64,000 nt of DNA from Dendrobates tinctorius (taxonomy: Eukaryota), in assembly GCF_039654945.1 (NCBI RefSeq), contig NW_027362202.1:186001-250000 (forward strand), in the 5' to 3' direction. The notes below the pieces were generated by a model. It did no database searches. It was not told the origin of the DNA and saw only the letters and a list, made by a program, of their open reading frames with translations. Shown here piece after piece: positions 15,201 through 60,344 of this stretch; position 1 is the first letter of the stretch; each line of letters opens with the position of its first letter. The position numbers were made by a program, and so were the translations under genes.

Positions 15201-18119
15201 TCCATCTTAAACATTTTTTATAAACGTAGTAAGCTTCCTTAAATTTATAATTGTCCCAAACTTACCATCTGGTTTGGAAATTAAAAATAAAGGAGAGTAG
15301 AATCCTCTACCTTCCTGTCCCTCTGGGACCTCTACTAAAACCCCTTTGGATAGTAGGCTCCGAATTTCTTCTTTGAGGGCCTTTTGTTGAACTATAGAGT
15401 TTAGGCAGGTTATGATAAAGAAATAAGGGATTTGAAGGAATTCTATTTTCATTCCTTCTTTAATAATGCTTAGAATCCATGGGCTCTAAGTTATTTGTTC
15501 CCATTTTGAATAAAAAAATTTTAATCTACCCCTTACTGGTGGGTCTAATTCTTTAATATTTATTTTCCTTCTGGAATGTTGAACCCCTGAACATGCTATC
15601 CTTTTGCTTTTCCTCCTTTGTGGGCCATCTATTTGATCTATCCGCTTGTCTCCTCCTTCCAAACGGTCGCCTTTTAAAGGTTCTCCTGTAGAAAGGGATA
15701 GAAGAATCAGGGAAGGCCTTCTTCCTTTCTTTTGCTTTGGCGAGTGTCATCTAGGGCTTTCCCAAAGAGAAACTCACCCTCGCACGGGGTTGCGCAAATC
15801 TTAGATTTTGATTGCGCGTCCCCCTTCCAGCTCTTCATCCACAGTGCCCGCCTGGCGTTGTTTACAAGAGCCGCCGATCTCGCTGCCAGCCGCAGAGTGT
15901 CTGCCGATGCATCGGCCATGAAGGCTGCTGCCCCTCTGATTAATAGAATAGCGGCCCGCAGTTTTTCTCTTGACACTTTCTGCTCGATTTGTTGATCCAA
16001 TTGGTCCAACCATACGAGCATAGATCTGGCGGTGCATGTGCTGGCTACTGCTGGCTTAAAAATTCCCGTGGTAGACTTCCAAGACCTTTTCAATAACGAC
16101 TCCGCCTTACGTTCTAGCGGGTCTGCCAACAAGCCTGCGTCCTCTACCGGAATAGTAGACTGTTTCGAGGTAGAGGCTACAACGGCACTTTGGTCCATTT
16201 TAATAGCTTGTCATTGCTAAATGGATATTTTCTCTTTGAGTCCGATGGGAGAAAACTTCTTTGATCATGTTTTTCCCTCTCTCTCTTTATTAGGGCCTTA
16301 ATTGCCGGTATTACTGGGAACGCTCTCCTTTTCTTTTCTGCCAACCCCGCAAACATTATTTCTTGTGCAGCTTGGGCACCCCTTGCTTCCTCACACCCCA
16401 TAGTGTTCCTCATGGATTTGACCAGGTTATCCACACTATCCAGGGGAAAACATGACCGTCCGTCCATGTCTGATGATGACGAGGATGTGAGTGAGGAATC
16501 GGAGATTAACCCCTGTTCTTCCTCTGACTCTGAGCTGAGGGTCACCTGTTTTTTGCTCCTAGTCTCTGAGGGAGTACTGGCACGGGTGATAGCCTGTATT
16601 TCCTCCCTAATTATAGCTCGAATGTCCTTTGATGACACTGCCGACCCTTGCCTAGTCTCTCTGGTGCACTGTTTACAGAGCTTTTTGGGGTAGGAGTCAG
16701 GGAGAGGTTCAGCGCATAAAGCGCATTCTTTATGCTTGGATTTTTGTTTTTTCTTTGCATGGAGAGGGGAGACATGGCAAAAGGAGAGAGGGGGGGTGGA
16801 GAGGTCAGCTTATTAGGCAGAGTATATACATTGCACACTCACCCAGTGAAGCTTTATATTACCGGATCAGATGGCTGAGATCCCGTCCTAGGTCTTGACT
16901 CTCCCACCTCGCTCCTGCGGGCGGTGTCTGTCCTGGTGGTGTGGTCCCTGGAGGAGCTGCCCCCCGCAGAGTCTCCTGCTGGAGCGTGCACTTCTGTTGG
17001 GGACGAGATGGTTCCTGCCACTCAGCTGCGGCGCTTGTTTAAATAGATTGCTCCCGCTTTTTTTTTTTTTTCTTCTGCCCCCGGAAGTCGCTCCTCCCCG
17101 GGTTCCCGCACATGCGCCGTCGCGCTCCTCAGACATCCTGCCCCGGAAGTTCACTCATTACTTCCGGGGCTCAGGAGCCTCTGCGCCGGCAGGCTACCGC
17201 GCCACAGCTCCTGTATGCGGCCCGCGCTTCTCCCCACGCTGCAGCCACAGCTGCTCTCTCTTTTTTTTTCCTCTGTGCCACTGGCGCACTTACTGCTCCC
17301 TGCAGCGGCGGCTCCTGCGTTTGGTGCCCCTGGCACGCTCCTAGGTGAGATAGGGCGGCCCCTCCCGGACCCGGTCATCACCTCTCAGCCATCAGATGAG
17401 GGGGGAGCCGTCTAACGGGGTCTCCCCCGACGCTGCTTCCATATCGCAGCCCCTGTCGTTCTCATGGACACTGCACAGGCGGCGTGCAAATCCAGGTACG
17501 TCTTCCTGAAGGATTAGTCAGTGGCGTAGCGTGGGGGGGGCGGGGGGGCGGTCCGCCCCAGGCGGCACGTGTGTGGGGGCGGCGCGGCAGCAGAAGCAAT
17601 TCCTCTCCTCTGTGGGAGAAGCGCGGAGCCTGGACTCACTGACTGTACATTTCGGCCTGCGGGGCTGTGCAGTGAGGGGGTAATGTAATGCAGCCTCTTC
17701 CCACCCTTCCTCCATCCTTCTCCTCCGCCTATCGGGAGTCTCTGTACCCCTGCTACCTAGCAGCTTCTCCCTCCTCTCCGCCTGGACCCTCAGTGAGCAG
17801 CGCTGCGCTGGGCAGAGGCAGTGCTGACGTCAGCCCCGCTGCACTGGAGGACTGTCATGGTGGGATGGTCGCGACTGCCAGGAATGTGATGCACACAAGG
17901 AGCCATGTTAGGAAGAGCCAAGCAGTGAGCTGGTGAGTGCGGGGCTGGGGTAAGGTGGTCTGCGGCTGCCCCCGGCGGCCCTGTGTGCAGGCAGCTGTCA
18001 TCCTCATCACAGGCTGCGCTGGGTGTGTGTCTGCCTCCATTGTGTGCAGTTATGTGCCACCAACACCGCTGCCTGTGTCTCACCATGTGCAGCAGCGAAA
18101 GGATCTGTGCATGCAGCCA

Positions 18120-19354: not shown

Positions 19355-19550
19355 TAAGTGTTCTCGTACATCCCCCCATATATACGTGTCCTCGTACATC
19401 CCCCTATACGTGTCCTCGTACATCCCCCCCATATATACGTGTCCTCGTACATCCCCCATATCCATATATACGTGTCCTCGTACATCTCCCCCTATACGTG
19501 TCCTCGTACATCCCCCCATATACGTGTCCTCGTACATCTCCTCCCCATAT
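19355..19550. repeat. Minisatellite with a ~24-29 bp unit ATACGTGTCCTCGTACATCCCCC
   Basis: About seven tandem copies visible. Confidence 0.9.
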
Positions 19551-24326: not shown

Positions 24327-24863
24327 AAACAATTACTTACCGGTAATGCTCTTTTAATGAGTCCACGACAGCACCCACTGGAGGTAGCGGGATCTGCCCC
24401 AAAGGAACAGGAAACCTAGAGAGACATAAAAGGGGGCGGTCCGCCTCTCCTCAGTTGTATTTCAGAGTATCAGGAGGACCGCCAATAGTTAGGCAAAGTT
24501 ATTGCACTTTAAGTTTAACCTATTTACTTCATATTTAGGGAATACACTATTAATACATGGTGTATCTATCGCTATTATCTTTATAGGGAGGGTAGTGAGC
24601 GGGTGCTGTCGTGGACTCATTAAAAGAGCATTACCGGTAAGTAATTCGTCTTTTTACCCTTCACCACGACAGCACCCACTGGAGAGATTCCAGAGACCAT
24701 CACCTGGGTGGGACCACCGTGCCAAGGACAGTCCTGCCAAAGCTTAGGTCGGACAGCTTGATGAGAGGTCACGTCTATAGTGATTATAGAAAGTAGAAGG
24801 GGTTGACCAAATTGCCGCCTTACACATAGCTTCGATTGGAACATCTCCCCTCTCGGCCCAAGA
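24327..24863 (-). mobile_element. DIRS1 3'-end fragment C (3' ITR, ICR, YR tail), related to element A
   Basis: ITR 24327-24457, ICR about 24601-24685 and the YR C-terminus on the minus strand; colinear with 12328-12850. Confidence 0.9.
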
Positions 24864-25270
24864 TATATTGACTGTATAGTTGAATAGCAGTTATATTGTT
24901 TACCCTGCATCCCCTTTTTCCCTGTTATCTCCCTACAGGAAGTTTACTGCTAATTAAGTAAATAGTTAACCCTTACTCTGCACCTCTGTCACTGCATCCA
25001 AGTACCTGCTTTACATAGTCAAAACTCTTCCTGTAGGAGTTTTAGGCTCCCAATAATAGGTTCCTACTACTGTAATTTTCTATCACTTGGTGGTATTCAC
25101 CTGCAAGCACTCAACTAGATATCAACTTCAACTGTATTCCCTCTAGTGTGTGTTTTTTATTTTAAAGCACACGCGCTACATGAGTGGGTATAAAAGAGGG
25201 GGGGTTGGTCATGCTATATGTGAGGGCAGGAAAAAAAAAAAATTGAACTTGGTTTGAGTTGATACACATG

Positions 25271-28200: not shown

Positions 28201-30305
28201 TTGGTGAGTCGGTCTTTTTGGTGGCCTGCCTTATCTCGTGACGTTAGGAATTTTGTACAGTCCTATGGGACTTGTTCTCGGTCTAAACCCTGTTCTCGTT
28301 CTAGTGGGTTGCTGATGCCCCTGCCGGTGCCCAAGAGGCCATGGACCCATATCTCAATGGATTTTATTTCTGATCTTCCTGTCTCTCAGAGAATGACTGT
28401 TATCTGGGTGATTTGTGATAGATTTTCGAAGATGGTCCATCTTGTACCACTCCCAAAATTGCCATCTTCCGCTGAGTTGGTGCGCTTGTTTTTACAACAG
28501 GTGGTTCGGTTACATGGGATTCCTGAGAACATTGTGTCCGACAGAGGAGTCCAGTTTGTTTCCAGATTCTGGAAAGCCTTTTGTTCCAATCTGGGAATTC
28601 AGTTATCCTTCTCCTCCGCGTTTCATCCCTAGACCAATGGACAGACAGAGAACAAAGCAGACCTTGGAGTCTTATTTAAGATGTTTTATATCTGCTGATC
28701 AGGATGATTGGGTCTCATTTTTGCCCTTTGCCTAATTCGCACTGAACAATAGAGATAGTTCTGCCACTTTGATGTCACCCTTTTTCTGTAATTTTGGGTT
28801 TCATCCTCGATTCTCTTCAGGGCAAGTGGAATCTTCGTCTTGCCCAGGTGTGGACACTGTGGTTGAGAGAATGCAGCAGATATGGGACCAAGTGGTGGAT
28901 AAGTGGTCACTCTCTGGAAAAGGCCCAGCGATTTTCTAACCGGCATAGGACCATTGGTCCCCGGTTTAAAGTGGGTGATATGGTTTGGTTGTCGTCTAAG
29001 AATATTCCTATGAAGGTTGCATCTCCAAAATTTAAGCCAAGATTTATTGGACCTTATAAGATTTTGGAGATTCTTAATCCTGTTTCTTTTCGATTGGCTC
29101 TTCCAGTTACGTTCAAGATCCATAACGTATTTCACAAGTCTCTGTTGAAGAGGTTTGTTGAGCCAGTGGTTCCTATGGCAGCACCTCCTGACCCTGTGTT
29201 GGTTGAAGGCAATATGGAATATGAGGTAGAGAAAATATTGGATTCTCGCTTGGTTAGACGGAGACTCCAGTACTTGGTCAAATGGAAGGGTTATGGCCAG
29301 GAGGATAATTCTTGGGTCTCTGCCTCTGATATTCATGCCAATAGATTGGTTCGTGCTCTTCACCGGGCCGATCCTGATCAGCCTGGTGGCGTGGATGAGG
29401 GTTCGGTGACCCCTCCTCAAGGGGGGGGGTACTGTTGTGAGCTCATTTTCTGGTCCACCAGCTGTGAGTTCTCCTTCCAGGCTCCCTCTGGTGGTAACTG
29501 GAGGTAGTGAGGCTGATTTAATCAGTAGAAATCTGCCACTTGATAATGAGGATGACGATTGGACCTCAGGAATCTCAGACTGGATTTAAGACCGCCGACG
29601 CACTAGTTTGGTGCTGGTGATTCCTTCTGGCTTGTCAGGTCTTGGTTTTCAGCTTTGTTCCAGTCATCTAAAGCTAAGTTTTTTCTGCTAATGTTCACAC
29701 TTGATTTTGTTGGTCTATTCAGTTTTTTGTGTGGTCAGCCAGTCCCAGCTGGGGCTGTGCTAAATTTCCACTCTTATTTATCTGTATTTGCCAATTTGCT
29801 TTTTGTCCCATATTAGATTGGCCTCTTTTTGCTCTCTCTCAGAATATTTTAGAGTGCTGATATAGTGGGAGAAGTCTAGTGACTTCAGGGTTAAATTTTG
29901 CTATCAGAAGTGTTCAACTTTATTTTTGTAGGTTTTTTTTGCAGATTGCAGACAGTGTCTTTCCTTTCCTATCCTTTCTAGTTAGTTTGGGCCCCATCGT
30001 TTGCTCAGCCTATTTTCCTGCCTGTGTTTGTGCTTTCATCTTGTTTCACCGTCAATACATGGGTGGGGGCTGTCTTTCCTTTGGGGTCTGCTCTGGGGCA
30101 GTTAGTTTTCCCCTTTCTTGCTTCAGGCTTATTTAGTCCTCCGGCTGTGATGAAGCATCTAGGACCATCGTAGGTATGCTCCATGGCTGCTGCTAGGTGT
30201 GTGGTTAGGATCAAGGATCTGCAATCTGCATAGTTACGAACTTCTCTGGTTTTCTGTGACTTAGTTTGTTTTGTTTTTTTTCTCCTCGGTGACCCATTCA
30301 TAACA
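25271..30305 (+). mobile_element. Chromovirus (Tf1/sushi-type Gypsy) with both LTRs, gag-protease deletion and decayed pol
   Basis: LTRs 25271-26137 and 29433-30305; poly-G PPT 29419-29429; RT (LRPCIDY, YLDD), RNaseH, integrase and chromodomain YEVEKILDSR...YLVKWKGY. TSD is CACA or CACATG; the empty site is visible at about 24216-24235. Confidence 0.95.
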
Positions 30306-30405
30306 CACATGCATGTTGACATTGACCATAAAACCTGCAAAAGACAAAGTGAGCAAAAACCCTGCTGTAACTAAATAAGTAAAAGCAAAAGTGCATCTAA
30401 ATAAT

Positions 30406-30594
30406 AAGCTGGATTACTTACCGGTAATGCTCTTTTAATGAGTCCACGACAGCACCCACTGGAGGTAGCGGGATCCGCCCCAAAGGAACAGGAAACCTAC
30501 AGAGACATAAAAAGGGGGCGGTCCGCCTCGCCTCAGTTTTGGTTTCCTGTTCCCAGGGGAACCTCAGGAAGAATCCTTCAGAAGACATACCTGG
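30406..30594. mobile_element. DIRS1 terminal fragment C' with a 3'-type outer end joined to a 5'-type interior
   Basis: Outer end matches 24327 onward. After CTCAGTT the sequence matches the 5' leader of element A (reverse complement of 19852-19880 and 17492-17518). Confidence 0.85.
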
Positions 30595-43200: not shown

Positions 43201-45614
43201 GCTTTGTGATCGAAAACAGGGAAGAGTAGTGCCCTCTTCCTCTTTCTGTCGGGGGAACTGGTACTATGACCTTTGAGTCTACCATGTCCTGTAGATCTTT
43301 CCACATTGCGGAGTTCTCCAGGACAACAGTGGGGGCAATATATCTCTGGGGGGGGGGGGGAGGAGAATAAAGCTCTATGCTGTAGCCTTCCGCGATGGTT
43401 CTGAGGACCCATTGATTGTGGGCGACTCGGGACCAGTTTGTTGCGAAGTGGCGAAGTCTCCCCCCAATACCTATGGCGTCATTGCCTCCTTGATCTAGAT
43501 GTTGACGTGAATGGGGGACCCTTGTTCCTCCGACCTTGGCTGAAGGAGCTCCTATTGGACCTTGCCCGACCCCTGAATTCAGTCTGTCTCCTAGAAAAGG
43601 AGCCTCTCCGAAACCCTTATTTTTATCGGACACCAGCTCTAGAATGTTATCTAAGGCTGGCCCGAATACCCTCAGGCCCGAGAAAGGGATGGAGCATAGC
43701 TTAGTTTTAGAAGCGTTGTCCCCCGACCAGGATTTAAGCCAGACTGCTCTTCGGGCCGCATTAGAGAGGGAGCCGTTTCTGGCTGCAAACCTTACTGATT
43801 CGGCCGACGTATCCGATAGGAACGCCGTGGCCGATTTCATGAGAGGAAGAGACGCTAGGATCTCTGATCTAGGGGTCCTGTTGGTTAGGCGTTCCTCCAA
43901 CTGCCCCATCCACAAAAACATAGACCTGGCCACCGAGGTGGCTGCTATGTTGGCTCTAATAAGAGCCGCCGACGTCTCCCATGCTCTCTTTAACAAGACG
44001 TCCGCCTTCCTATCCATCGGGTCTTGAAGACCTGATGAGTCCTCGAATGGGATGGCCGTTTTTTTGGTAACCTTGGCGACTGGGACATTTTAGGGACTTC
44101 CCATGCCCGGGTTTCCTCGGGATCAAAAGGCAGTCTATTTTTAAAGTCTCGGGAGAGTATCAACCGACGTTCTGCCTCCTTCCACTCCTCCTGGACCATC
44201 GTTTTGATGTGTTCACTTACGGGGAACACCACCTGTTTCCTGGCCACTAGTCCTCCAAACATCAAGTCCTGTCTGGACTGTGGTTTAGGGACTTCTATTT
44301 GCATAGTGTTCCTGACTGCCTGGACCAACTCGTCCGTGTCCTCCAGTCTGAACAGGTACTTCCTGCTCTGATCCTGTCTGTCCCCCAGTATCTCGCCTTC
44401 TTCCTCCTGATCTGAGTCCCGGAAGTCAGACTCCTCACTAGGGCTTGCTTCCAACTCTGGGTCTGCCTCCCACCTTGGACGTTTGCGACTCGGCCCTGGG
44501 CTGGGGGACTGACGACGTGCGCAGCTGGCTGTAGAGACCCGGACTTCCTCCCTTATCAGCGATCTCATTTCGGCAAGGAGGGATGGCTGTTCCTCGCCTA
44601 TGACCCTTGAGGTACAGGGTCCGCATAGGGTCTTGTTATAGGTGTCTGGCAGCTTTACCCTGCATACGGGGCAGCGGACTGATTTGGAGGGGGCCTTTGC
44701 CGGGTCCTCCACCCCCAAGGGGGATTCTGCCGGGGTTACCTTCTCCTAATACAGAAGGGGCTCTACTTAGATCTGAGTTGTGGGGATGGATGGGGGAGGG
44801 TGGTCTGCGCTATGCGCACTTAACACTCCACCTGCTGGAGCGTTTCCTTCCATCCTGGCGCAGTCTGTAGAGCGCTATGGATCTCCGAAGTGTGCGCTGT
44901 GGCAGTAGCGCGCTCTGTGGACCTCAGGAGCACGCGCTGAGATTCAAGGCCGGCGTGTGACGTCACCGGATGTGATGCGCGACCTCTCGCGATAGGCCGC
45001 CCACTTCCTGCCCGGGCTGACCGCGCGGCTTCTGCCTGCTATGGCGGCCTGTTGGAGCAGTCGCTCCCCTCCCGGCGCCGACATCTTGTCGGCCGCCTGG
45101 CCTGCCGCCGCGGGGAGCTGACCCCCGCCTGCTGCAGCAGTCTGCTGTGTCTTTCTGCCACGGGGGCCCGGCCTTCGCCTGATATGGCGGACTGCTGGAG
45201 GCCTCGCTCCTGCCTCCCAGGGCCGCCCGCACCATCCTGTCGTCGGTGCCCGTTCGGCCAGCCGCCTACGGGGAGCCGACCATCGCCTCTATGGTGGTCC
45301 GTCCTGGAGCCTCCCATAGGGAGGAACGGCTCCCTCCAGGAGCGTCGTCCTGCTCCTGGCCTTTGGGGCAGAGGGACTCCCCCCTCGGAGAGTTTCGGCC
45401 CCGGGACCTCTTGACAGGGGAAGGCTTGGACTGGCCGTACGATCCCCTGAACCCCTCCAGTAAGTCTCTCGTGTGTCCCTCCATGCAGGGACAGGAAAAA
45501 CACTGAGGGAAAGGGGGTGGGACATGACCTTTTAACCTCTCGTGTACTTTTCCTGTCCCTGTAAGGAGGAGGAGGACGTCCTCCATGGTGCTGTCAGGTG
45601 GACGTCCTGGAAAA
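40208..45614 (-). mobile_element. DIRS1-type element E (distinct family), full length with few lesions
   Basis: ITRs about 40208-40356 and 45501-45614, ICR 40473-40559, gag with CxxC..CxxC at 43990-44745, RT YLDD, MT-like DLFAS..AFPP, YR 40577 onward (TAKR, HSTR, HY), and a long overlapping ORF 41286-42965. Confidence 0.96.
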
Positions 45615-46308
45615 TATGTTTTCCTCTTGTGACAGCAGAAAGCCGCAATGACTGAGACCAGGTCGGAGGCAGACTGCTGCAACTCTATCCTGCCTGGAAG
45701 GACATTTCAAATAGCTACTGGATCCTTAGCGTCATTAAACCGGGGCTTAAATTTGAGTTCCGAGAAACGACTATCGATCGATTTTGTTCGGACTCCTGTT
45801 CGTTCTTCCCTTGTGGAACAACGGGCGTTAGAGTCCGGGAACTTCAGCAGAAGGGTGTCCTGGTGAAAGTTCCAGAGGTTCAGAGAGGTAAAGGTTTTTA
45901 CTCCCCCCTCTTCTTGGTCAAGAAACCTGATGGTTCCTTCCATACCATCATAAACCTTAAAGGCCTCAATAAATTTATTTTCATACGCACCTTCAAAATG
46001 GAATCTGTTAAATCTGCCATAAAGTTACTATTTAACAGATGCTTCATGGTGGTGATAGACCTTAAAGACGCCTATTATCATGTCCCGATACATACAGATC
46101 ATCAGCGTTTCCTAAGAGTAGCAGTTTCGTTGGGGGGGGGGGGGGGACTTTAAACATCTTCCAATTCAGAGTACTCCCCTTCGGGGTGGCGGTCGCACCA
46201 TGAGTTTTCACTAAGATAATGGTGAAGGTTATGGCCCATTTACACGAACAGGATATTCTCATGATCCCCCATTTAGATGACCTGTTGATTGTGGGAGACT
46301 CAGAGCTA

Positions 46309-46633
46309 GGCCCTGTGCGGATACTGCCGCGGATCTGCAGCAGAACTGCAGGTGATGTACAGTACCATTAAACACTATGGAAAAAAAGAAAACCCGCTGT
46401 GCACATGCTGCGGATTTTTCCGCACGATTTTCGTGCGGAAAAAAGCAACATGTGACTTTGGTGCGGTTTTCCACCTACTCCACTATAGGAATCTGCAGGT
46501 GGAAAACCGCACGAAAACCGCAAAAAAACAGGAAGAAATCCGCAGGAGAAATGCAGGTCATTTGACCTGCGGATTTCGTGAATTCTGCACAAAAAAAATG
46601 CATGCACAGAATACGCACCGTGTGCACATAGCC
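46309..46633. mobile_element. Harbinger-type MITE inserted in the RT of element D
   Basis: TIRs GGCCCTGTGC and GCACATAGCC; CTA/TTA TSD. Removing it restores the frame HLDDLLIVGDSELHCTAQLQKVV. A related MITE lies at about 52265-52558. Confidence 0.85.
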
Positions 46634-49600
46634 TTACATTGCACCGCACAATTACAGAAAGTAGTAGCCAGCCTCCAACACTTGGGATGGATCATTAATT
46701 TAAAAAAAATCATGATTGAAACCCATGGAGACGCAGCAGTTCCTTGGTCCGCTAATAGATTCCAGGTTGCAAGAGTGTCGCTTACCGGAAACAAAGGTGG
46801 GCAGTATTCAGCGGCAAACACTCAGGGCAATACAGAACCCTTCGGTCACTCTAAGGGGTGCAATGTCATTATTGGGCTCACTCACTTCATGTATACCAGC
46901 GGTTCTTTGGGCCTAATACCACACCAGGTCCCTGCAGTGGGATGTATTACACAATACTTGCCAGTTAGGTCACTTAGAGGAAATTTTACTCTGTCCCAAG
47001 AGGCGATTCATTCCCTAAGGTGGTGGACTCACAGACCAAACCTGTGTAGAGGGGTCCCTTGGATAAATCAGATCTCCCGAATCATATCCACAGATGCTAG
47101 CCCCAGGGGTTGGGGGGCATATATGGGGAGATGTGGATCCAAGGGGTATGGTCACCATAGGAGCAGGACTACACATCTAATATAAAGGAGTTGTTAGCAG
47201 TAGAATGGGCCTTAAGTGGCTTCCTTATGTCCCTACAGGGCCGGCATGCCAGGGTTCTCTCAGACAATCAGGTAACTGTGGCTTACGTTAGTCATTAAGG
47301 GGGAACGTGCTCCAGGGCTTTAATGGAGGTGGCAAATCATATCTTTCAGATAGCCGAAGTTCTTCTGCTATCCCTTACAGCCCTCCATCTAAAAGGGGAA
47401 AAAACAATATTACAACCGACTTCTTAAGCCGCAACAGACTCAGGTAAGGAGAGTGGGTTCTAAACAGGGCCGTCTTCGAACAGATCGTGCACATGTGGGG
47501 GTCTCCAGAAATAGACCTGTTCGCCAACAGGAAAGACAGGCAATTGCATCAGTTTTGTTTGCTGGACCCCAGAGAAGACCCGCTTGCAGTAGACTCTCTC
47601 CTAATCCCGTGGAACTTTGGTCTGGCTTACGCCTCCCCCCCCCCACCCACTGAATTTAATTCCAATAGTGCTAAGGAAGATCCGGGAAGACAAGGCACTC
47701 ACGATCCTGATAGTCCCATTCTGGCCCAGGAGGCCATGGTTTAAATTGGCCGAGGAAGATGTCAGTGACCCAGCCATGGATTCTCCCAGATCTCCTGTCC
47801 TAGGGTCCAGTATTCCACCCGCACGTATCCAATCTACATTTAGCGGCGTGGAATTTGAGGGGGCACTACTGAGTAGAAAAGGCTTCCCTCAGGAGTTGGT
47901 CAACACCCTATTAAAGAGTAGGAAACCTTCCACGACAAATATCTACGTAAAAATTTGGAAAAGATTCTTGTCAGCCTCTGGGGCGGAGATCGAATCCGTA
48001 TTGGTCAAGTTTTAGAGTTCCTGCAGAAGGGTTTAGAGATGGGTCTGGCTACAAGCACGCTTAGAGTCCAGGTCTCGGCCCTACGGGCATTGTATAACTG
48101 TAACCTAGCGAGCAACTACTGGGTATCCAGATTCATAAAGGCAGCGTCTAGATCTAGGCCCATCATTAAAAGGAAACTAGTCCCATGGGATCTGAACTTA
48201 GTGTTATCAGCTCTAACAGAAGCCCCGTTTGATCCTATTGATTCTGCCCCTATTAAGGTCCTATCCTTCAAAACTGACCTACTGGTCGCATTGACATCAG
48301 CCAGGAGAGTTAGCGATTTGCAGGCTCTCTAGACTCTCCCCGTATACCCAGTTTAAGGAAGATAGTCATTCTAAGACCAGACCCCTTGTATTTGCCTAAG
48401 GTCGCCTCAAAGTTCCACAGGCTGCAGGAATAGTCCTTCCCTCCTTCTGCCCAGACCCTACTAGCCAGTCAGAGAGAACTTCACTCTTTAGACATAAATA
48501 GATGTCTCCTTGCTTACATTAGGGCCACAGACCCCTGGAAGAAGGACAAATCCCTATTAGTTTCCTTTCAGGGCGTTAGGAAAGGGCTTAGGGTATCCAA
48601 AAACACTTTAGCCAGGTGGATTAGGGAGGCAATTTCTCTAGCTTATACGGCAGGTGGTGCAGAAGCTCCGGAAGGCGTAAGAGCACACTCCACTTGGGCT
48701 GTGGCGACATCATGGGCGGAGTGCTCAGAAGTATCCATTGAGGACATTTGTAAGGCAGCTAACTGGTCATCTACATTCACGTTCTTTAAACACTATAGAT
48801 TGGATTTAGTCGACTCCTCCGATCTCACACTTGGGAGAAAGGTGCTTGAGGCTGCTATCCCTCCCTAGGCTCTTTACATCTCTGTAATTCTCTCGTGGTG
48901 CTTTCGTGGCGACTAAATAAATGCTTAGCTACTAACCGGTAGCGGTGTTTTTCAGGAGCACACGACAGCACCTTTCTAATCCCTCCCTTTCTCAGTTTTC
49001 TTTCTCAAGTATGGATCAGCACCTATCCTCTACCTTTCCTCCTGCCGGTATTGTCCCTCGATCTCTGTTTGACCTTCTCCTGTCAAACCACCTTCTTCTA
49101 TAATCTCACCTGTAAAAGGGTCTTCCTAAGTAGGGGAACCGTTTTTTTGTTTTTTTTTACAGTCGCCCACCTTCTCCAAGAGCTCGTCTAGTACCGAGCC
49201 AAACAGGTGTTCCCTTCACAAGGGATGTTGCACAATTTCGACCTGGCCTGCATATTCCCTGGCCAACACTTCAGCCATAAGGCCCTGCGGGCGACATTAG
49301 GCAAAGTTGCTGATCTGGCAGCAAGCCTTACAGAGTCTGCTGATGCATCCGAGAGGAATGATGCCACCTCCTGAATCATAGGGATAGAGGATAGAATTTC
49401 TTCCCTAGGGGCCTTGTCCCTGAGCTGTTCCTCTAGGCGGTCTAGCCACACCATCATAGACCGGGCTGTACATGTGGCTACAATAGCTGGCCTAAGATCT
49501 TGCTGAAGTTTCCCACGACCCTTTTAGGAACACGTCAGCCCTTCTGTCTAGTGGATCTTTCAGACTCCCCAAATCCTCGATTGGCAGAGTGGTTTTTTTG

Positions 49601-51675
49601 CAGGCCTTGGCTACCGCCGCATCCAGCTTTGGTGCTTTATCCCATGCGGCTGATGCTGACTCCTCAAATGGGTATTTCCACTTAAATGCTGACGGCAAGG
49701 AACCCTTCCTTTCTGTTTTCTTCCACTCCCAAGAAATCAGGAAATTTATTTTGTCAATAACTGGGAAGGACCTACGCGATTTCCTATCCAGTCCTTTAAA
49801 CATAAGATCCTGAATGGAACTTTCTGCCTGGGGCTCCTCGAGCCCCATAGTGGTGTTGACTGCTTTTACTAGCCAGTTAATCTGGTCCGGCGGAAAACAA
49901 GGACGACCAGCTCGTCTCTGAGGATGACGAGAATGAAGGGCATGAATCCGATAACAGCTCTCCTGAATCGCTCCCTGAGTCTGAACACTGGAGCCCGGGT
50001 CCCACTTCTCTAACCCGTCCTTCCCGTGGTCAGGCTCTGACTGAACCCTTAATCTCCTGTCTAACCAACTCTCTCAGGGTGGTGGACAGGTCTGGGGTTT
50101 CTTCTGCTATTAGGTTCTGGATGCAGGGTCTGCAAAGTTTCTTCCCATGGCCATCAGGGAGAGGAACGCCACACTCCCTGTGTTTGGTTTTAGCAGAACT
50201 TTTGTCCCTGCTTAATTTGGAGAGGGGGAACATAAGGGGAAGTGTGTGTGTGTGTTGATGTGTCTCTGTGGCCTGAGGACCTGCCGGACTTATCCTTCTC
50301 CTTGTGGGCACTTTTAGCTTCTGCAGGGCGGCTACTGCCACTAGACCACTGCTGAGAAGCTGAGGCCGATCCAATGATGCCGCTGATGCATGCTCTGAGG
50401 AATCCATTTTGCGTAATGGCATTGAAGCCTCTAGGCGCCTACGCAGCCTCCTTACATAGGCCGGCCTCACCCAATGGTACCTGCCCCCAGTGGGGCCAGT
50501 AGGCGGATCCGGGTGGCCTGCCCGGTACTATGCGCATAGGGGATTTAACCATATCCCCCGCCCCCCCCACGGCGCCCATCCGTGGGTTTCAGTGCCTCCC
50601 CCTGTCCACTGACACTATGCAGCACGGCATCCCGGAGGCCTGCGTCGCCGGCCCCACCACACGTGCCCGGCCGCGTCATCAGGGACTGCCTTTTCCGACA
50701 TGTCACGGCCGCCGCGCGACGGTGACACGCCGAGGCCGCCGGCTCCCAGACGGAGAAGCATCGCCCCGGACGCCGCCTGGAGGCCCCACCAGGAGAAGGG
50801 AGGCTCCCACGCGTGTACTTACCTGTACACATGGCGATGGGCCCCCTAAAGACAACTTTCCCCCAGGAGGGCGCCTTCGTGCTGCTGCCTCACGGACAGT
50901 CCCCCTGTCGTGGGCACTTCCAGAAGACCGGGGAGCCGTCACAGGGGCCCTCCCGCTGCTAGACCCGACCCCACGGCCCTGGGATCCTTACATAAAGTGA
51001 CGAGGTATATGCCGAGGTTCAGGAAACCAACTGAAGCGGGGGGAGAGGGCAGCCTTTTTGTGCCTATAGGTTTCCTGTCCCCGAAGGGCAGATCCCCTCT
51101 CGTGGTGGTGTTGTGGCGACTGAATAAAATAAAGTAACAAAAAACGCTAATGAGAGCCGCCAACTTTTTTTTTTTTATAAAAAACACACAGTTGTTCAGT
51201 CTGGGGCTACACAGTGAAAGTTGCTGCCATACAATCCATGTCAAAGAAAAAATTTGCAGCTTGAAAGCAAAATTGTTACCATGATTCTGTCTCAGAGCTG
51301 AAAAAAAAAAAAAAAAAAAAACCTAATTGCAAAGCATGAGACGATATGAGAACGCAACTCGATTGACTGACGATCACTGTGTAGTTCTAGACATGTCAAA
51401 TACCACATTGCTTTTTTTATTTTACAGCCTGGAAGAACAGGTCACAAAAACTGAAATTTCTGCAAATGAATGTCCAAAAATGCACCGAAGAGGTAGTTTG
51501 GGCCAAAATCTGAAAATACAAAGCTTAACACACCCAAGAAAGGACCCAACACAGGAGATAATGGGTCTCAAAAGTATATATGTTACTATTTTGTGCACCC
51601 CCGGTTATTAACCCTATACTATGAGGTCAATACAGAGACAGGTTGTGCGCTACAGTAGTAATCATTTATACTTAC

Positions 51676-51719
51676 TTCTGTTGTTGTTCTTCCGTGTCTT
51701 TGGGAAGCTTTAGTGCAGC
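51676..51719 (-). CDS. FTCD: FTCD exon 11, 44 bp
   Basis: AALKLPKDTEEQQQ(K); CAG acceptor and GTAAGT donor. Confidence 0.94.
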
Positions 51720-51835
51720 CTGCAGAGGGGGGACACCAAATGGAAATTAGAGTGTAAGAGAAGATCAGACTTAATGGCGTTAGGAATTGGAGTTCAAACA
51801 GAGCTAGAGTCAAAATACATTTAAAAATAAATTAC

Positions 51836-51997
51836 CATATAGCTTCCAAATGCATTGGAGTCTGAGTCTACGAGAGCCAGCAACTGATCGACTGCATGAT
51901 GAAAAGAGGGAATCAACTCTCTCATCGCTCCATCCAAAGATTCAAATTGACGTTTTCCGTAAGTCATCTGCCCCACCATACATCCTAGTGCCGCTCC
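51836..51997 (-). CDS. FTCD: FTCD exon 10, 162 bp
   Basis: [54 protein letters not shown]; TAG acceptor and GTAAT donor. Confidence 0.96.
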
Positions 51998-53120
51998 CTA
52001 CAATGAGAATGTGACCCAAACTGCAATATTGCAATCATCCAGCAAACTGGAAAGTGTGATTTCATTAAAAAGGGGTGATCGCCTCTCAAACATGTTGCAA
52101 TTGGTTATTGTTATTATCAAGCAACTTTGCAATTTACCCCTTAGTTAAACGCCTCAAAAAGGAAGCACTTTAATTCTATTGTGTAGAAGACATTGCCACA
52201 GAGGTGCAAACCCCCCGAGAAGACGTGCCAGATTCATTACGTTACGTATGCCACTTAATGATTTTGGCGCATTGTACACCTGCAGTTTCTGCTGTGGTGT
52301 ACAGTACCATTATTCCCTATGGGTATTAAAAACCGCTGTGCAGACACTGCAGAATTTTCCACATGGATTTTGCTGCGGTTTCAAATCCGCAGAAAGAGTT
52401 GCATGTCAATTCTTTCTGCGGATTCCGCAGCGGTTTACCATCTCCTCCATTGTGGAGATCATAAACCGCAGGGCAAAACTGCAGGTTAATCAGAAGGTCT
52501 TTTGACCTGTGGATTTTGCAGAATCCGCAGCAGATTCCACAGCATGTGCACACAGCCCAAGAGTGGGATCATGCAGTACATAGCGATGGCCACTACACCG
52601 TTGATGGAACCGAGCTATTCAGCTACAATACTGCCAACATCCGGCTGCCACTGACACCTAGAAAAGCTGAACAGTGGGGGGGGGGGGGGGGGTCCAGCCC
52701 ATCACCGGTCGGATATCGATCACTTATCCAGGAGGGCCACATGCACACGTTCAGCATTTTACATCCGGGTTTGTAAACCAAAAATCAGGAGTGGGGCAAT
52801 CAGAGAAAAGTCTAATAGAAAAACATCACCACTTCTGCATTTATCACCTACTCTCCAAATACTGAATGTGGCCTTAGGATAGGTCATCAATATAAAAAGT
52901 GGTGGAGTAGGCTTTTAAACAAAGTTTGTAAAATTGGAATTGGTGTTTATGTTGTATTTGGAAAAATTTCAATAAGAAGATTACCTAATTAAAAAAAAAT
53001 AAGTTTGTAAAGTGCCTAACCGACACACTGGTTGTGTGTTTCGCTTTAGGCCTACACAATAATTGAGTTCAAACAAATTGCATAATCCAAAATGTTCCTA
53101 CCCCTGCTCACTGTTCTTAC

Positions 53121-53247
53121 CATAGCCGACACAGCAGCAGACACAGAGCCACCTCCGGGGGTGGCCGTCCGCGCCCCCACACTGTGCACAAACCCTTTCA
53201 ATGTCTGTGTGATAAGTGATCCAGACAAGTCATCTTGAACAAAATAC
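53121..53247 (-). CDS. FTCD: FTCD exon 9, 127 bp (linker and start of cyclodeaminase domain)
   Basis: YFVQDDLSGSLITQTLKGFVHSVGARTATPGGGSVSAAVSAM, containing the cyclodeaminase PGGGS motif; CAG acceptor and GTAAG donor. Confidence 0.96.
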
Positions 53248-53349
53248 CTGCAATACATAATGTGTATTCATTATCAATTACAGGCAAGAAGTTTGAGGGA
53301 AAAGAGGCAGAATAACAGTGAGTAGAAGAGAAGAGCAAGGTCGACTTAC

Positions 53350-53411
53350 TCTATTATTCTTTTCTGAGGTTCAAAAGGAGCCAATGAGTCAAGTCCAAGT
53401 CTGTTAATAAC
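53350..53411 (-). CDS. FTCD: FTCD exon 8, 62 bp
   Basis: VINRLGLDSLAPFEPQKRII(E); AAG acceptor and GTAAGT donor. Confidence 0.95.
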
Positions 53412-53679
53412 CTTGAAAAGCAGGAAACTTATAAAAAACACAGTTCAGTATATAATACAAATCTGTTGGGTTTTCATTCTAAAATATTCAATACATTTTC
53501 CACTATTTTATAGGGAATCTGTCGACAGGTATTCGCTACCCCATTTGAAAGCATGATGCAGGGAGAGAGACCCCGATTCCAGCGATTAGTCACTTTACGG
53601 AGTACAGCCGTTGTGATAAAAGTTCTCTCTGTTGTAGATGTACCACCACACATCTTCGTGACATCACTGAAAAATCAGG

Positions 53680-54315
53680 CAAAACACAAGCCGCGGAGAC
53701 ACCATCACATGTTTCTCAACACAAGCAATGACTAGCCAGGTCTTTCCCCGGGAAGGAACAACCACGGGAAGGGCAGTCTCCAATGAAGGAAACCACCTAT
53801 GCCAAAACATGGTCTCCGCGGCTTGTGTTTTGCATGTTTTTGCATAATTCCCATAAGGGATGGGGGCATTGCTCTAGAATCACTGCGTTGAGAAACATGT
53901 GATGGTGTCTCCGCAGTGTTGGATATTGATCTCCATGAGTTTATTCATCCTCGTTTTTCACAGTCTTTTACTAGGCATTGCTCCTACTAGTCAGTTTCCT
54001 ACTCCACACTGATGAGGGGCAATACCCAGAAACAGCTGTCTGTGGATGGATACCATGTTTTGGCATAGGTGGTTTCCTTCATTGGAGACTGCCCTTCCCG
54101 TGGTTGTTCCTTCCCAGGGAAAGACCTGGCTAGTCATTGCTTGCGTTGAGAAACATGTGATGGTGTCTCCGCAGCTTGTGTTTTGCATGTTTTTGCATAA
54201 TTCCCATAAGGGATGGGGGCATTGCTCTAGAATCACTGCGTTGAGAAACATGTGATGGCGTCTCTGCAGTGTTGGATGTTGATCTCCATGAGTTCATTCA
54301 TCCTCATTTTTTCAC
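53680..54315 (+). mobile_element. Retrozyme-like non-autonomous retroelement: 1.4 tandem copies of a 353-nt unit plus an inverted partial copy
   Basis: 53812-53961 repeats at 54165-54315. 53679-53813 is the reverse complement of about 54052-54186. TSD-like TCACTGAAA(AA)TCAGG at 53664-53679 and 54317-54330. Confidence 0.8.
54003..54046 (+). ncRNA. Type I hammerhead ribozyme motif
   Basis: Stem I TCCACA/TGTGGA, core CTGATGA, stem II GGG-CAATA-CCC, GAAA, palindromic stem III ACAGCTGT, GUC cleavage triplet ending at 54040. The G10.1-C11.1 pair is replaced by G-A. Confidence 0.85.
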
Positions 54316-54518
54316 CTCACTGAAATCAGGGTCTCAGCACCTTCCTGCTGACAGATTCCATTTAAATTATGCATAAAATCAAGATGTACAACAAAATGAA
54401 ATGTATGATTAGCGCATTGTATAATCTGTCCTAGAAAAGCCACAATACGGGAATGATAGTTGTCGGAACAGCAGCTTATGAATAACTGGTTCTACATTGA
54501 AGGAAGGCAAAAGATTAC

Positions 54519-54650
54519 CAGTCGGATTTTGTGTTGTTCTTCTAATATAAACAAGTTCTCTTCTTTGATATAATATTCTGCAGACGTCAACAAGGCTTGA
54601 AGGGGCACTAAACCCACCAACTGCGAGCCGAGAATCGGAAGACTTAGCGC
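54519..54650 (-). CDS. FTCD: FTCD exon 7, 132 bp
   Basis: [44 protein letters not shown]; TAG acceptor and GTAAT donor. Confidence 0.96.
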
Positions 54651-54705
54651 CTAAAACAAGGCAAAAGTAGTTTAGCTACACAAAAAAAAAAAAAAAAAAA
54701 AAAAA

Positions 54706-57700
54706 AAAGACGGATTACTTACCGGTAATACTCTTTTGTAGAGTCCACGACAGCACCCACAGAGAGGGGATCCACCCCCGGAACAGGAAACCTACAGAGA
54801 TAAATGGGGCGGTCCCCCTCGCTCCCTCAGTTTGTGTTACCGAGAACAACGGAGGAACCGCCATACATGTTTTAGTCAATTTGTTTGGGCGATTCATCTA
54901 TCTTACCCCTACATCGTTTATGTTCGCCAAGCTTAACCACGTATTAAATTCTAATTACAGTCTCCGCCACCAAGGAGACCCATGTGAAACAAAAATTTTA
55001 CGGGAGGGAAGTGAGCGGGTGCTGTCGTGGACTCTACAAAAGAGTATTACCGGTAAGTAATCCGGTTTTTCCTCTTCGCCACGACAGCACCCACTGAGAG
55101 ATTTCCAGAGATCATCACCTGGGAGGGCACACCGTGTTAAGGACTGATCTACCGAAAGACAAATCCTCGGTAGAGGATAAATCTAGTCTATAGTGACTAT
55201 AAAAGGTAGATGGAGAAGACCAGGTTGCAGCCTTACATATTTGTTCAATTGGGACGTTTGCCCTCTCGGCCCAGGAGGACGATATGGCTCTAGTAGAGTG
55301 CGCCTTAATCCCCAGCGGAGGTTCTAACCTTTAGCCAAATATGCCATTGTGATCGCATCTCTAATCCACCTGGATAGTGTGCCTGTTGTAACTCCAGACC
55401 CCTTTCTGTTGCCCTGGAAGGAGACAAAAAGAGACCTACTCTGCCTCCAGGGACTGGTCCTATCAAGGTAGGCTAGCACAGCTCTTCTCACATCTAAGGT
55501 GTGATATTTCACCTCGTCCTGGTTTGACGGGTTTTCGTAGAAGGAAGGTAGGCATATCTCCTGAGACCTAAGAAATTTAGTTACCCGTTTGGGAAGGTAG
55601 GACGGATCTGTCTGTCTCGTGTTATTGACAAGAACGGAGGGTCTATTGAGAGAGCATGAAGATCACCTACTCTTCTAGCTGATACTAAAGCCACTAGTGT
55701 AGCAGTTTTCAATGAAAGGCACTTCACTGATGCTGAATCTATGGGTTCAAACGGGGCCTGAGTAAAGGCATCCAAGACCAGAGTAAGGTCCCATGCAGGA
55801 AGCCGAGGAATATGCACCGGTTCTGATCGTTGACAGGCTGAAACAAAACGGGTCACCCATCTATTTGCTGCCACGTTATAGTTAAATAGGGCTCCTAAGG
55901 CCGATATATGGACTTTAAGAGTATTTACTGAGAGGCCCAATTCTCGGCCTCTTTGAAGAAACTCTAAGATGGCCGTAATGGGTGGTTCACCGGCTAGCTC
56001 TGCTGGGTGAAAGGTCAGGAATTTCCTCCACACCTTAGCGTATATTCTTGTTGTAGATTCTTTTCTACTTTGTAGCAGGGTATTAATCAGGTTTTTCGAA
56101 AAGCCTTTCTGCTTTAATAGTTCCCTTTCAAATTCCAGGCCGCTAGGTGTAGGGCTTTGACCTGTGGATGGTAGCAGGGTCCTTGCGAGAGAAAATCCTG
56201 GTGCAGCGGCAGGATCCACGGGTCGGTTATTGACATGGCTCTCAGCCATGAAAACTACGGCCTTTTGGGCCAAAACGGGGCTATCAAGATGTCTGGGTTG
56301 TCTGACCTGTAGAGCGAAGCAACCCTTCTTACACGTCTGTTGGCTCTGGTCGCGAACAGGTCTATCTCTGTCTGCCCCATTCTTTCGCTATCGTCTCGAA
56401 GACGTGCCTGCTGAGGACCCACTCGCCCTGATATAGGACCTGGCGACTGAGATAGTCTGCTTGAGAGTTGTCCACTCCTCTTATGTGGAGCGCCGACAAG
56501 GAGTGAAGATGTACCTCGGCTACTTGTAGGATCTTTTCCGCGATAGACATCAACGGTCCCGATCGCGTACCTCCTTGTCAGTTTATATAGGCCACTGCGG
56601 TGGTATTGTCTGTCTGGACCCTCACGTGGGTTCCTCTTAACTGCGGGAGAAATTGAGACATCGCATAGTAAATTGCTTTTAGCTCCTTTACATTAGAGGA
56701 GGTTTCTATTTCATGTTTACGCCACCAGCCTAGCATCATGTGCTCCTCCAGGTGGGCCCCCCAACCCAAGGGGCTAGCATCCGTGGTGAGCACCTTGGAG
56801 GGAGTTACCCACCATTGCACTCCCTTTGACAAATTGGTAGGATTCAACCACTTTAGGGAATTAACCACTTCCGGCGATAGGGACATCCTCCCTTCCAACC
56901 GTCCCTGCAGTCTGTTTCCTGCAGAATAGCCCACTGTAGCTTTCTGGAGTGGAACTGAGCCCATTGCACCGCCGGGATGCACAATATCAGGACCCCAGCA
57001 AGGACATACCCTGTCTCAATGATATTACGGGTCTTCCTATAGTATTTTGTATCTTATTGATTATGGCCACCGCTTTAGCGTCTGGTAGAAAGCATTTCTG
57101 ACTTACGGAATCTACTTGCAGGCCTAGGAACCTCTGACAGGTCACTGGTTCTAGCCTGGACTTCTCCCAGTTGATTAGCCAGCCTAGTGTTTGTAAGGAT
57201 GAGATAATCTTAGCCATTCTTGTTTCGCACTGAGAAACAGAATTCCCCACTACGAGCAGGTCGTCCAAGTAAGGGATCACTAGGGTGTCATTCAGTCTTA
57301 CATACGACATCACCTCCAGCATCAATTTGGTAAATACCCGAGGAGCCATGGATAGCCCGAATGGCATTGCCGCAAACTGGAAATGCTGAATCCGACCCTT
57401 GAACCAGACCGCTACCCGCAGGAACTTCTGGTGCTCTCGGAATATGGGGAGATGGTAATAGGCATCCTTTAGGTCCAAGACTGCCATATAACACCTGGGA
57501 AACAAAAGTTTTATTGCAGAATTTATTGACTCCATCTTAAATGGCCTCAGCCTCAAGAAGGTATTAAGCTTCTTTAAATTTATTATAGTCCTGAAAGAGC
57601 CATCTGGTTTTGGGATTAAAAATAGAGGAGACTAAAAGCCCATTCCTCTTTCGTCCCTTGGGACCTCTATCAGGACCTGTTTAGTTAGTAGTACTGCAAT

Positions 57701-60139
57701 CTCCATCTCTAGTGCTTCCTGCTGTATCTGGGATTTCATGGAAGTCAATAGGAAGAGGTTCGGTGGATGCCGAACGAATTCTAGTTTTAGGCCCGATGAG
57801 ACGATATCAATGGCCCATGGGTTGGATGTTACCTTCCCCCATTGGTGGCTCAATTTCAGTAGTCTGCCACCTACCGGTGTACTGGTATTAGCGGAACCTG
57901 TCTCCTCTGAAGGGACGTTTTCCGAATAGATTGCTCCTTATTTCCCCAGCGATCCTGGGGTTTAAAGTCTTTTTGCCAAACGGCGGTTTTCTGTAGGCCC
58001 TGCTATTAAAGGGAATATACGGGTTAGGAAAACCTCTCTTTCTCTCCCCCGCTTTTGTTAAGATCTCGTCCAGTTCCGTGCCAAATAGGTACTTACCCTG
58101 GCAGGGTATAGCACACAGTTTAGTTTTTGTTTGCGTGTCTCCTTTCCACCCCTTCAACCATAAGGCCCGCCGGCCTGCATTGGTTAGTCCTGCTGCTCTA
58201 GCGGATAAACGGAGAGAGTCCGCTGAGGAATCGGAGAGGAAGGCAGCTGCTCCTTTAATGAGGGGCATAGAGGACAGGAGTTTATTCCTGGCCACTCCAT
58301 TTTTAATATTGTCCTCTAGGTCATTCAGCCACACCAACATTGACCTTGCCGTACACGTGGCTGCTATTGTGGGCTTAAAAGCTGCCGTACATGCTTCCCA
58401 GGATTGTTTAAGGAGTGTATCGGTCTTACGATCCAATGAGTCATCCAAAGTTCCTGAATCCTCTACCGGCAGGGAGGATCTACGAGAGGTAGAGGCCACT
58501 GCCGCATCCACCTTGGGGGCTCTCGACCAAGCCGTCAATTCCTCGTCGTCAAAAGGGTATTCACGCTTTGACGTTAAGGGGAGGAAGGTTCTCTGCCCCT
58601 GTTTCTCCCACTCCCTTTTTACTAGCTCTTTTATAGCTGGGACCACTGGGAACGCTCGGACCTTTCTACGGGAAATGCCTGCAAACATTATGTCTTGCGG
58701 AGTCTTGGGGTCCCTACTCTCTGGTAGCCCCATGGTATTCCGGACAGACTTAACCAAGTTACTGACGCCATCTGTAGGGAAGCACGTCTGTTCCTCATCC
58801 TCTGAGCAAGGGTATTCCTGGGATATATCAGTCTAGATCCCCGGTTTCTGACGGTGAGTTTGACGCCGGCGAAGCTCCCCCTCTCGGTGAACCTATTTCT
58901 CTCACGGAGGCGTGACCTCCCAGACTACTGGAGTTGCCTAAGGCCCGTAGCTCTTCTCTAATTATCGCTCGGATATCCTCTTTCTTCCGCGAGGATTCGT
59001 CCTGTAAGGCCTCCTCAATACACGACTGACATAATTTCTTAGGGTGGCCGTCTGGGAGGGGCTGAGAACATAAGGCACACTCTCTATTTTTCGCCTTCTC
59101 CGTTCTTTTGGCCTAAAAAAAGGGGGGTGTGGACCAGAAAAAACGAACATCAGTTATTTATTCTGACTAAAAACACTCACCCGTGAGTTTCGTCAGTAAA
59201 CTACCGGCTGCGGGGTCCGTGACTCAGGCCTAGGCGAGGCGTGGGACGGTTTTTTCTCTTTACGTTTTTTCTCTAAGGGCTCGTCTTGTCTGGAAGGTCC
59301 GCTAGATTCCTTCCTGGAGCTGCCACTTCTTCTGGTGCTACTTCTCCTCCTTGTAGTACCGCTTTGTCTGCTGCCATGTGGGGATTTCACTGGCTGATTT
59401 AACGGGAGCGAAGCTGGGTCATCTATGGATGACATGACTGCGCATTGGCGCTGTGCTCGTGGCTTCTTTTTATAGGTTTTATTATTGATGCTCCACCATT
59501 TTTTTTTTTTTTTTTTTTTCTCTTTCTGCCCCATCTGCGCATGCGCGGGCGTTTCCCCGCGATCGCCGCCTCCTGTGTTGACCCCGGAAGTTGTCATACC
59601 ACTTCCGGGTCGCCTCTGCCTGGGAGCGCCGCTGGAAGTCTGATGCAGCAGCCGCCGGACAGTGACACCCACGCACCCGGCCGCACCCCTTGCCACAGGT
59701 ATGATCCCCAGTAGCGCTGCCTGGCACAACGCTCAGGCTCTTCTGCTTTCTCCCGGGGGGGGGGGGGGCGCACGGCCACCATCCCGGATATGCCCTCATG
59801 GCCTCTGTAATGCGCTCGCCCCTTCCTGGGGGGGGGGGTAATATTCTTACCTCCGGCCTCACCTGCATTACCAGCTCTGGGGGGGGGGGGGGGAAAAAAA
59901 AAATAAATAAATAATATCGCCTCTCCGCCCGACGCCGCTTCCAGTCCTGGGGCCCCTGCTGCTCATATTATGCACGCAGGCGGCTACCAGACCAGGTATC
60001 CTCTTCTGCGGGTTCCTTTCCAGGAACAGGAAACCAAACTGAGGGAGCGAGGGGGACCGCCCCATTTATCTCTCTGTAGGTTTCCTGTTCCGGGGGCGGA
60101 GCCCCTCTCTCAGTGGGTGCTGTCGTGGCGAAGAGGAAA
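54706..60139 (-). mobile_element. DIRS1-type element F, full length but degenerate, in FTCD intron 6
   Basis: ITRs about 54706-54834 and 60036-60139, ICR 55017-55100, gag 57888-59435, RT YLDD (56987-57853), RH TTDAS, YR (SARR, HSTR, HY); A-runs on both sides. Confidence 0.95.
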
Positions 60140-60206
60140 AAAAAAAAAAAAAATAAAAAAAAACACACCTACACAGCTTACAGGCACAAGAAGGAATATC
60201 AAGCAC

Positions 60207-60344
60207 CTTGGCATCTTTGCGCGTTTCTTCATACACCATGTGAAGAGGAGTAATTTCATAATCTAATATGTTTGCAGACACTTGAGCCAGATTCTCTTCT
60301 TGCAGATACCAGCCAATCGCCTGCACTTTTTTGAGACGTCCAGA
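60207..60344 (-). CDS. FTCD: FTCD exon 6, 138 bp
   Basis: [46 protein letters not shown]; CAG acceptor and GT donor. Confidence 0.97.

Follow-up and report, generated by a model that had tools for sequence, protein, structure and literature searches.

Two spliced introns in frog DIRS1-like retrotransposons, likely used to make Gag and Gag-Pol beside an unspliced RNA template

Retroviruses combine an unspliced genome with spliced subgenomic mRNAs and have suboptimal splice sites as well as splicing silencers that bind U1. In Ogre, the removal of an intron joins the gag-side and RT-side coding regions. This Ty3/gypsy element is cited as being spliced between its ORFs in the accessible part of PMC3735527. 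For the Ty1/copia elements copia, BARE1, and EVD, the available parts of two papers (PMC3735527, PMC5580714) describe a spliced gag RNA, a Gag to Pol ratio set by splicing, and packaging of the unspliced RNA; the optional gag intron of barley BARE1 is small, 104 nt. According to the accessible text of PMC7192593, a marker RNA that has been spliced is turned back into DNA by DIRS-1, which also acts in trans. Surveys of vertebrate DIRS1-like elements, in the portions available, describe three ORFs, and neither 'intron' nor 'splic' occurs there (PMC9210276, PMC3266345). The TMPO/LAP2alpha and ZNF451-L2a exons derive from DIRS1 gag, and the colonising sequence was inferred to carry a splice acceptor, which the accessible text of that study does not show in the element itself (PMC4495291); the acceptor of intron 1 described below is a candidate for it. 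The literature searched, with subscription reviews, Repbase, and supplements outside its coverage, yielded no report of native DIRS introns, and a prior mention is improbable rather than far-fetched. Retroelements should lose their introns. The frog DIRS elements analyzed here keep two over many subfamilies, together with a fossil record of each splice. We are confident, if short of certain, that both introns are really spliced and likely serve to produce Gag and Gag-Pol alongside an unspliced RNA template.

The window, a stretch of 64,000 nt from Dendrobates tinctorius, contains a broken copy of such an element, F (Table 1). The nearest named proteins are those of poison frogs. Its ITRs lie at about 60141-60035 and 54834-54705 (60128-60035 matches 54745-54834 inverted at 94%), and its ICR, at about 55101-55017, matches the left end through 55066-55101 and the right end through 55017-55070. 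Pfam recognizes PF11560 (LAP2alpha; 2.8e-18) and PF00078 (4.5e-18); RNase H and the tyrosine recombinase (YR) give a weak Pfam signal, the YR being backed by homologues, and one region we take, from a familiar motif, to be the MT domain. With gag, RT/RNase H, MT, and YR in overlapping frames, F is a DIRS1-like element. It resembles the Xenopus DIRS-like families in its ITRs, ICR, T-run ends, LAP2alpha-domain gag, RT/RNase H/MT, and overlapping YR but differs from them, as they are described in the accessible text, in having a split gag and, in our reading, a spliced Gag-Pol (PMC9210276, PMC3266345). The copy in the window is damaged, its exon-2 frame ending at 58830 and its pol and YR broken up into pieces. 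F is inserted in sense within the FTCD intron 54650-60206, and the host joint 54649/60206 is seen in RNA contigs.

Table 1. Features of element F and its surroundings, with homologous introns of two other elements, in window coordinates
Feature	Position	Strand	Basis or remark
DIRS1-like element F, broken copy	54700..60143	(-)	ITRs, ICR, LAP2alpha gag, RVT_1, weak integrase N-terminal matches
Host FTCD exon, upstream of F	60207..60344	(-)	Pfam FTCD 2.7e-18; spliced joints in RNA runs X5, X7, X8
gag exon 1, ATG and 77-codon Ser/Arg/Lys-rich leader	59205..59435	(-)	Sequence; pN 0.108 vs pS 0.434 between subfamilies
Intron 1, 92 nt, phase 0, GT..AG	59113..59204	(-)	Exact loss in 9 full-length copies; RefSeq models
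Used donor GTAGTT, weak consensus match	59199..59204	(-)	Intron-less copies; homologous upstream donor used in family B
Internal strong donor-like GTGAGT	59175..59180	(-)	Behind in-frame TGA; 31 nt from branch A; use unrecorded
Branch-like CTGAT	59149..59153	(-)	Sequence; branch A 55 nt past used donor; use inferred
Pyrimidine tract and acceptor TAG	59113..59127	(-)	Sequence, family copies, intron-less copies
gag exon 2, CxxC..CxxC and LAP2alpha domain	57888..59112	(-)	414 codons where frame open; window copy broken near 58830
Intron 2, 94 nt, phase 1, within gag coding sequence	58003..58096	(-)	Sequence; exact loss in B and G; F by homology
pol frame (RT, RNase H, MT), +1 to gag	56150..58002	(-)	Broken in window copy
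Candidate third donor, just past gag stop	57865..57870	(-)	One RefSeq model (P0012); not conserved in all families
Candidate recombinase acceptor, phase 1	56641..56642	(-)	YR opening; two RefSeq models (P0012, P0087)
Tyrosine recombinase frame, overlaps RNase H/MT	55117..56640	(-)	Broken in window copy
Homologous intron 1 of element B	16759..16862	(-)	Acceptor mutated in window copy
Homologous intron 1 of element D	44746..44823	(-)	Donor mutated in window copy; relatives have a single in-frame GTAAGT donor

FTCD itself occupies 51676-60344 on the minus strand; F sits in a small intron (5556 nt including F), in the T-tract of that intron. A near-identical second copy of the region, either a haplotig or a segmental duplication, lies at about 15.58-15.63 Mb of G000 C56 (L002, L032, L062, L087), carries elements B, D, E, and F arranged as they are in the window, and is the best match of the X5 contigs. 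An internal inversion, 49024-45614 on the plus strand, divides element E (45614-51132), which adjoins element D, and a 2.3-kb insertion containing a CA-rich repeat interrupts the 5' region of element B (12327-19990). At 7170-8590, 24330-25650, and 29430-30590 lie short or truncated DIRS pieces that have both terminal repeats or an ICR, and a 580-nt inverted repeat, 98% complementary with its arms 112 nt apart, lies at 430-1701.

Copies were sought in 6.4 Gb of genome, and five families were compared: F; B, D, and E, which are also in the window; and G, found by a Pfam search. Exon 2 of F reads AKRTEKAKNRECALC in phase 0, and no ATG precedes its Cys motif. Like a U2-type intron, intron 1 has a GT donor, a branch, a pyrimidine tract, and AG. 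Among the 30 best genomic matches of F, exon 1 measures 231 nt in 24, the length of intron 1 varies from 89 to 96 nt and covers all three phases, and GT is intact in 29 and AG in 28. Without splicing, the frame that the leader ATG opens ends at about 80 codons. B, D, E, and G likewise have a donor, a pyrimidine tract, and a phase-0 acceptor, 30-72 nt ahead of the Cys motif; in all five families donor, branch, tract, and phase-0 acceptor are co-located while the intron sequences differ. In family G (L131-L160), the pyrimidine tract of intron 1 has expanded as a CT microsatellite of highly variable length.

Divergence between F1 and F2 was computed from 14 non-independent pairs, a fixed-length filter having dropped 8 of the 11 F2 copies. 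In the leader, pN/pS is about 0.25; the first 60 codons of exon 2 give a pS of 0.483 and a pN of 0.043, and intron 1 differs at 0.162 of aligned sites, below the synonymous 0.43-0.48. The leader exon codes and is under purifying selection, and intron 1 is better conserved than silent sites. RefSeq gene models of 491 aa (77 plus 414) use the donor and acceptor of intron 1, and frog models use both intron junctions and are not recognized there as transposon genes; these models are predictions, possibly built on the same or a close genome. For the annotation of amphibian DIRS ORFs this matters, since ORF finders miss the true Gag N terminus. An earlier note on this DNA had described an ATG at 59435 opening 77 codons that end in CCG before GTAGTT from 59204, a 92-nt stretch (59204-59113) with CTGAT, a C/T tract, and TAG that is joined in phase 0, and a Cys-rich gag segment without an upstream ATG of its own, all of which is borne out in the sequence; its donor and acceptor are those of the intron-less copies described below and of the 491-aa models. 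The pattern it proposed to test, conserved signals with freely varying intron length, holds as to GT, AG, and the varying length; the intron sequence is constrained, not free. Beyond that note are the stronger GTGAGT at 59180, intron 2 at 58096-58003, and the broken state of the window copy.

Evidence for splicing comes from copies that have lost intron 1. A 65-residue junction-spanning piece of the RefSeq model was compared with the genome, and 150 of 11,139 candidates were scored. The nine best F matches are contiguous, and all lack exactly the nucleotides that align to 59204-59113 of the window; six are canonical, and three have the same junction with the next codon altered. Such copies had been proposed as a check in the earlier note. 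All nine retain left end, ICR, and right end, are 5.4-5.7 kb long, and have T-rich ends, with poly(A) in none of them. As full-length copies with DIRS ends and without poly(A), they indicate that the DIRS machinery copied a spliced RNA. A tenth, distant copy (L194; 77% identical, with nested insertions) also lacks the 92 nt and was excluded from the count; L289 and L220 were rejected as noncanonical deletions. In family B, the five best matches of the junction search are contiguous, and in four of them the intron, of 94 or 110 nt, is precisely missing, the upstream donor being the one used each time; the fifth carries a different deletion and was rejected. Through these nine F and four B retro-copies, intron 1 is confirmed, indirectly, as a real spliceosomal intron that is removed exactly from RNA. 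It is extremely improbable that the intron-less copies are DNA deletions or processed copies made by LINEs. The junctions do show 1-2 nt of microhomology, and the family is rich in other deletions, but those do not recur, whereas the same GT..AG-bounded loss recurs across many subfamilies with differing intron lengths, and the full-length F copies lack the 5' truncation, besides the poly(A) tail, of LINE products. Searching for exact intron-less copies is a generally applicable means of mapping the splicing of retroelements where RNA data are lacking.

Intron-less copies are rare. The intron motif is retained in 432 F copies, so that nine amount to about 2%, both counts being lower bounds. In a tree of gag exon 2 with 59 rows (L003, L027, and L194, short or unmapped, were omitted), the nine intron-less rows need 8 changes, 7 of them forced by strong branches, as against 8.5 for shuffled labels; they span at least four separate subfamilies. 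As judged from this tree, the losses are scattered over F and do not form one lineage. L188-L190 share the variant of the junction, so recombination or limited spread may occur, and the true number of losses may be below the tree count. Spliced RNA, then, is sometimes retrotransposed, and unspliced RNA is the likely usual genome, consistent with the low share and scatter of intron-less copies. The two-RNA system suggested in the earlier note fits these data: some 98% of copies still have intron 1, and those without it do not make up a lineage.

Intron 1 has more than one possible donor. In F, B, G, and E, a weak upstream site that shares the frame of the leader is followed, 17-24 nt downstream, by a strong GTRAGT, in a phase that is not conserved and, in F1 and most B copies, behind a stop. 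The F and B intron-less copies record use of the weak in-frame donor and never of the stronger out-of-frame one. The internal GTGAGT was also considered as the true donor of F and rejected; it is intact in the 432 copies, with 3 exceptions (non-T at +2) that are point mutants. By hand count, the strong donor lies 30-38 nt from the branch, the weak one about 55 nt, and the single donor of D about 57 nt. The minimum distance between donor and branch is generally given as near 45-50 nt. In B and G, a predicted stem buries the internal donor (z of -2.5 to -3.8 in five of five sequences); one-sided changes that keep the pairing occur in 5 of 15 pairs, and two-sided changes in none of these 15. The signal in F is weak (z of -0.3 to -2.0 in four sequences; -0.71 for the whole region). 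A role of the hairpin in intron 1 is a guess from such folding. More speculatively still, the unused GTRAGT within the predicted hairpin of B and G might damp intron-1 splicing or mark genomic RNA.

The second intron lies at the junction of gag and pol. Near the 3' end of gag, a phase-1 GTRAGT donor occurs in F, B, and G, with a branch, a pyrimidine tract, and an acceptor 94 nt further on. This acceptor is in phase 1 of the pol frame, and removal of the intron shifts gag into that frame, in which the first Met comes only once the conserved GGRL..W opening of RT has passed. At this very place, gag and pol are joined in RefSeq models of three frog species. In a junction search with a B-type query, 150 of 20,798 candidates were scored and about 30 matches were contiguous; exactly 94 nt are absent from 29 of the 30 candidates fetched (28 plus L201). 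These copies belong to B subfamilies that are 82-96% alike and to G, and two further ones turned up among the controls. On a tree of 80 rows (10 unmapped ones omitted), the 30 intron-2-less rows need 15 changes, 12 forced by strong branches, their clustering being partly due to sampling. Each of the two introns has therefore been cut exactly at its GT..AG from RNA later copied into full-length elements. In B and G, intron 2 is exitron-like: it lies within coding sequence, is removed exactly, and changes the frame. For F itself we infer it from position, length, and phase. Intron 1 is still present in 29 of the 31 intron-2-less copies; in one, a large deletion has taken the region away, and one is ambiguous. 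Conversely, all 13 exact intron-1-less copies keep intron 2. No copy without both introns is found among these 31 and 13, so the Gag-Pol mRNA itself is unrecorded. D and E have an acceptor-like site and no intron-2 donor, and the two-intron scheme is thus not universal. L009, L011, and L099, with a long gag-plus-pol frame, were rejected as cases of loss, since small deletions account for the frame. One E copy, L123, has pol in frame directly past the gag TGA (TGA then C; gag stop near 2868) and no intron-2 donor and is a candidate for stop readthrough; one copy was checked, and two more share the sequence.

RNA contigs were available from six of eight runs (X1, X2, X5, X6, X7, and X8), and the presence of spliced FTCD identifies X5, X7, and X8 as RNA. 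Contigs with locus-private variants bridge intron 1 unspliced (58566-59838 in X5, 58486-59386 in X7). The X5 contig matches 14 private variants of the locus at a depth of about 48, compared with about 200 for host mRNA contigs. Such contigs, which may come from either strand, may be retained host FTCD intron. Among the joints listed (15 at 5% for X1, X2, X5, and X6; 15 of 84 for X1, X5, X7, and X8), none is at either F intron; contigs drop rare forms, so missing joints are no evidence of absence, and the contigs neither show nor exclude spliced element mRNA. A joint at 44708/44793 near element D does not fit the predicted intron 1 and was rejected. F-specific contigs reach about a quarter of mRNA depth, and the next FTCD intron has almost none; it is possible that the F insertion causes retention of the FTCD intron.

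Might the splices be real but cryptic and functionless, at chance sites, with Gag and Pol made from a downstream Met or by frameshifting? The rarity of spliced copies and the unspliced contigs would fit, as would the position of the intron-2 signals within gag codons, where they could be partly forced by the protein. We consider this very unlikely, given that both splices keep the frame in every family, that the Cys motif lacks a start codon (ATG) of its own, and that the leader is under purifying selection in the joined frame. The use of a weak in-frame donor next to a stronger unused one and the co-location of the signals in five families also argue against chance sites.

We favor functional introns. 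Removal of intron 1 would join the ATG leader to a gag exon without a start, giving a 491-residue Gag, and removal of both introns would give Gag-Pol; optional intron 2 would then stand in for a ribosomal frameshift and set the Gag to Gag-Pol ratio. RNA that retains intron 1 would encode only the 80-residue leader peptide and would be the preferred template for reverse transcription, a preference that would explain why the introns persist. Either selection at packaging or simply rare splicing may keep the template unspliced. Possibly the introns persist through inefficient splicing alone, with no packaging preference, and intron-less copies are purged later, being unable to make the other products. 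The dominance of unspliced contigs and the weakness of the used donor agree with this, and two independent rare events, with an expectation of about 0.6 among 31 at 2%, would account for the lack of double losses. On the other hand, an intron-1-less element still encodes Gag, Gag-Pol, and YR and should spread unless intron 1 aids replication, yet no such spread is seen, and the low divergence of intron 1 relative to synonymous sites also counts against this reading; we regard inefficient splicing as the sole cause as rather unlikely.

With functional introns, the frog elements would resemble Drosophila copia, barley BARE1, and Arabidopsis EVD in that splicing probably sets the Gag to Pol ratio and, as in BARE1, a small optional intron lies in gag. 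In those elements, as far as their accessible descriptions go, splicing yields a Gag-only RNA from one ORF, whereas the polarity in DIRS would be reversed: Gag would come from RNA with the gag-internal intron and Gag-Pol from RNA without it, and the start codon would be provided through an extra intron. The intron of Ogre, an LTR/integrase element, lies between ORFs, while the frog DIRS are YR elements with an intron inside the gag coding sequence. They share with retroviruses suboptimal splice sites and, likely, a full-length unspliced genome, but retroviral Gag is made from unspliced RNA, and DIRS Gag would need splicing. The scheme offers a testable answer to how overlapping, start-less DIRS frames yield Gag and Pol, with a polarity opposite to that of copia and retroviruses.

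More speculatively, the recombinase might come from a further splice, into RNase H, where a candidate acceptor lies. The YR frame of F and B opens about 15 codons ahead of an acceptor-like CAG inside RNase H, and its first Met is codon 104. P0012 enters this candidate acceptor from a donor just after gag, and P0087 from a host KRAB exon. The splice was found at none of 15 loci retrieved with the P0012 junction query and in none of four pattern matches in family B. A full alternative-splicing programme that yields Gag, Gag-Pol, and a spliced recombinase, with a conserved hairpin and its decoy U1 site in intron 1 switching RNA between message and genome, is tentative and, in our judgment, somewhat more doubtful than probable. 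If true, it would account for the expression of overlapping DIRS frames and for the fact that, on two occasions in mammals, DIRS gag turned into an alternative exon (LAP2alpha, ZNF451).

D-like elements have a YR frame of about 950 codons with its own Met. In three copies of family D (L119, L121, and L126) the recombinase frame, of about 965 codons, begins directly past the TGA of gag and in frame with it; pol is +1, and its acceptor-like site has no matching donor. Their intron 1 shows a single strong donor, and the leader is 10 codons long. In P0087, the host KRAB exon is spliced into an F-family recombinase frame, a possible exon capture like that of LAP2alpha, and the candidate acceptor on the recombinase side may thus capture host exons.
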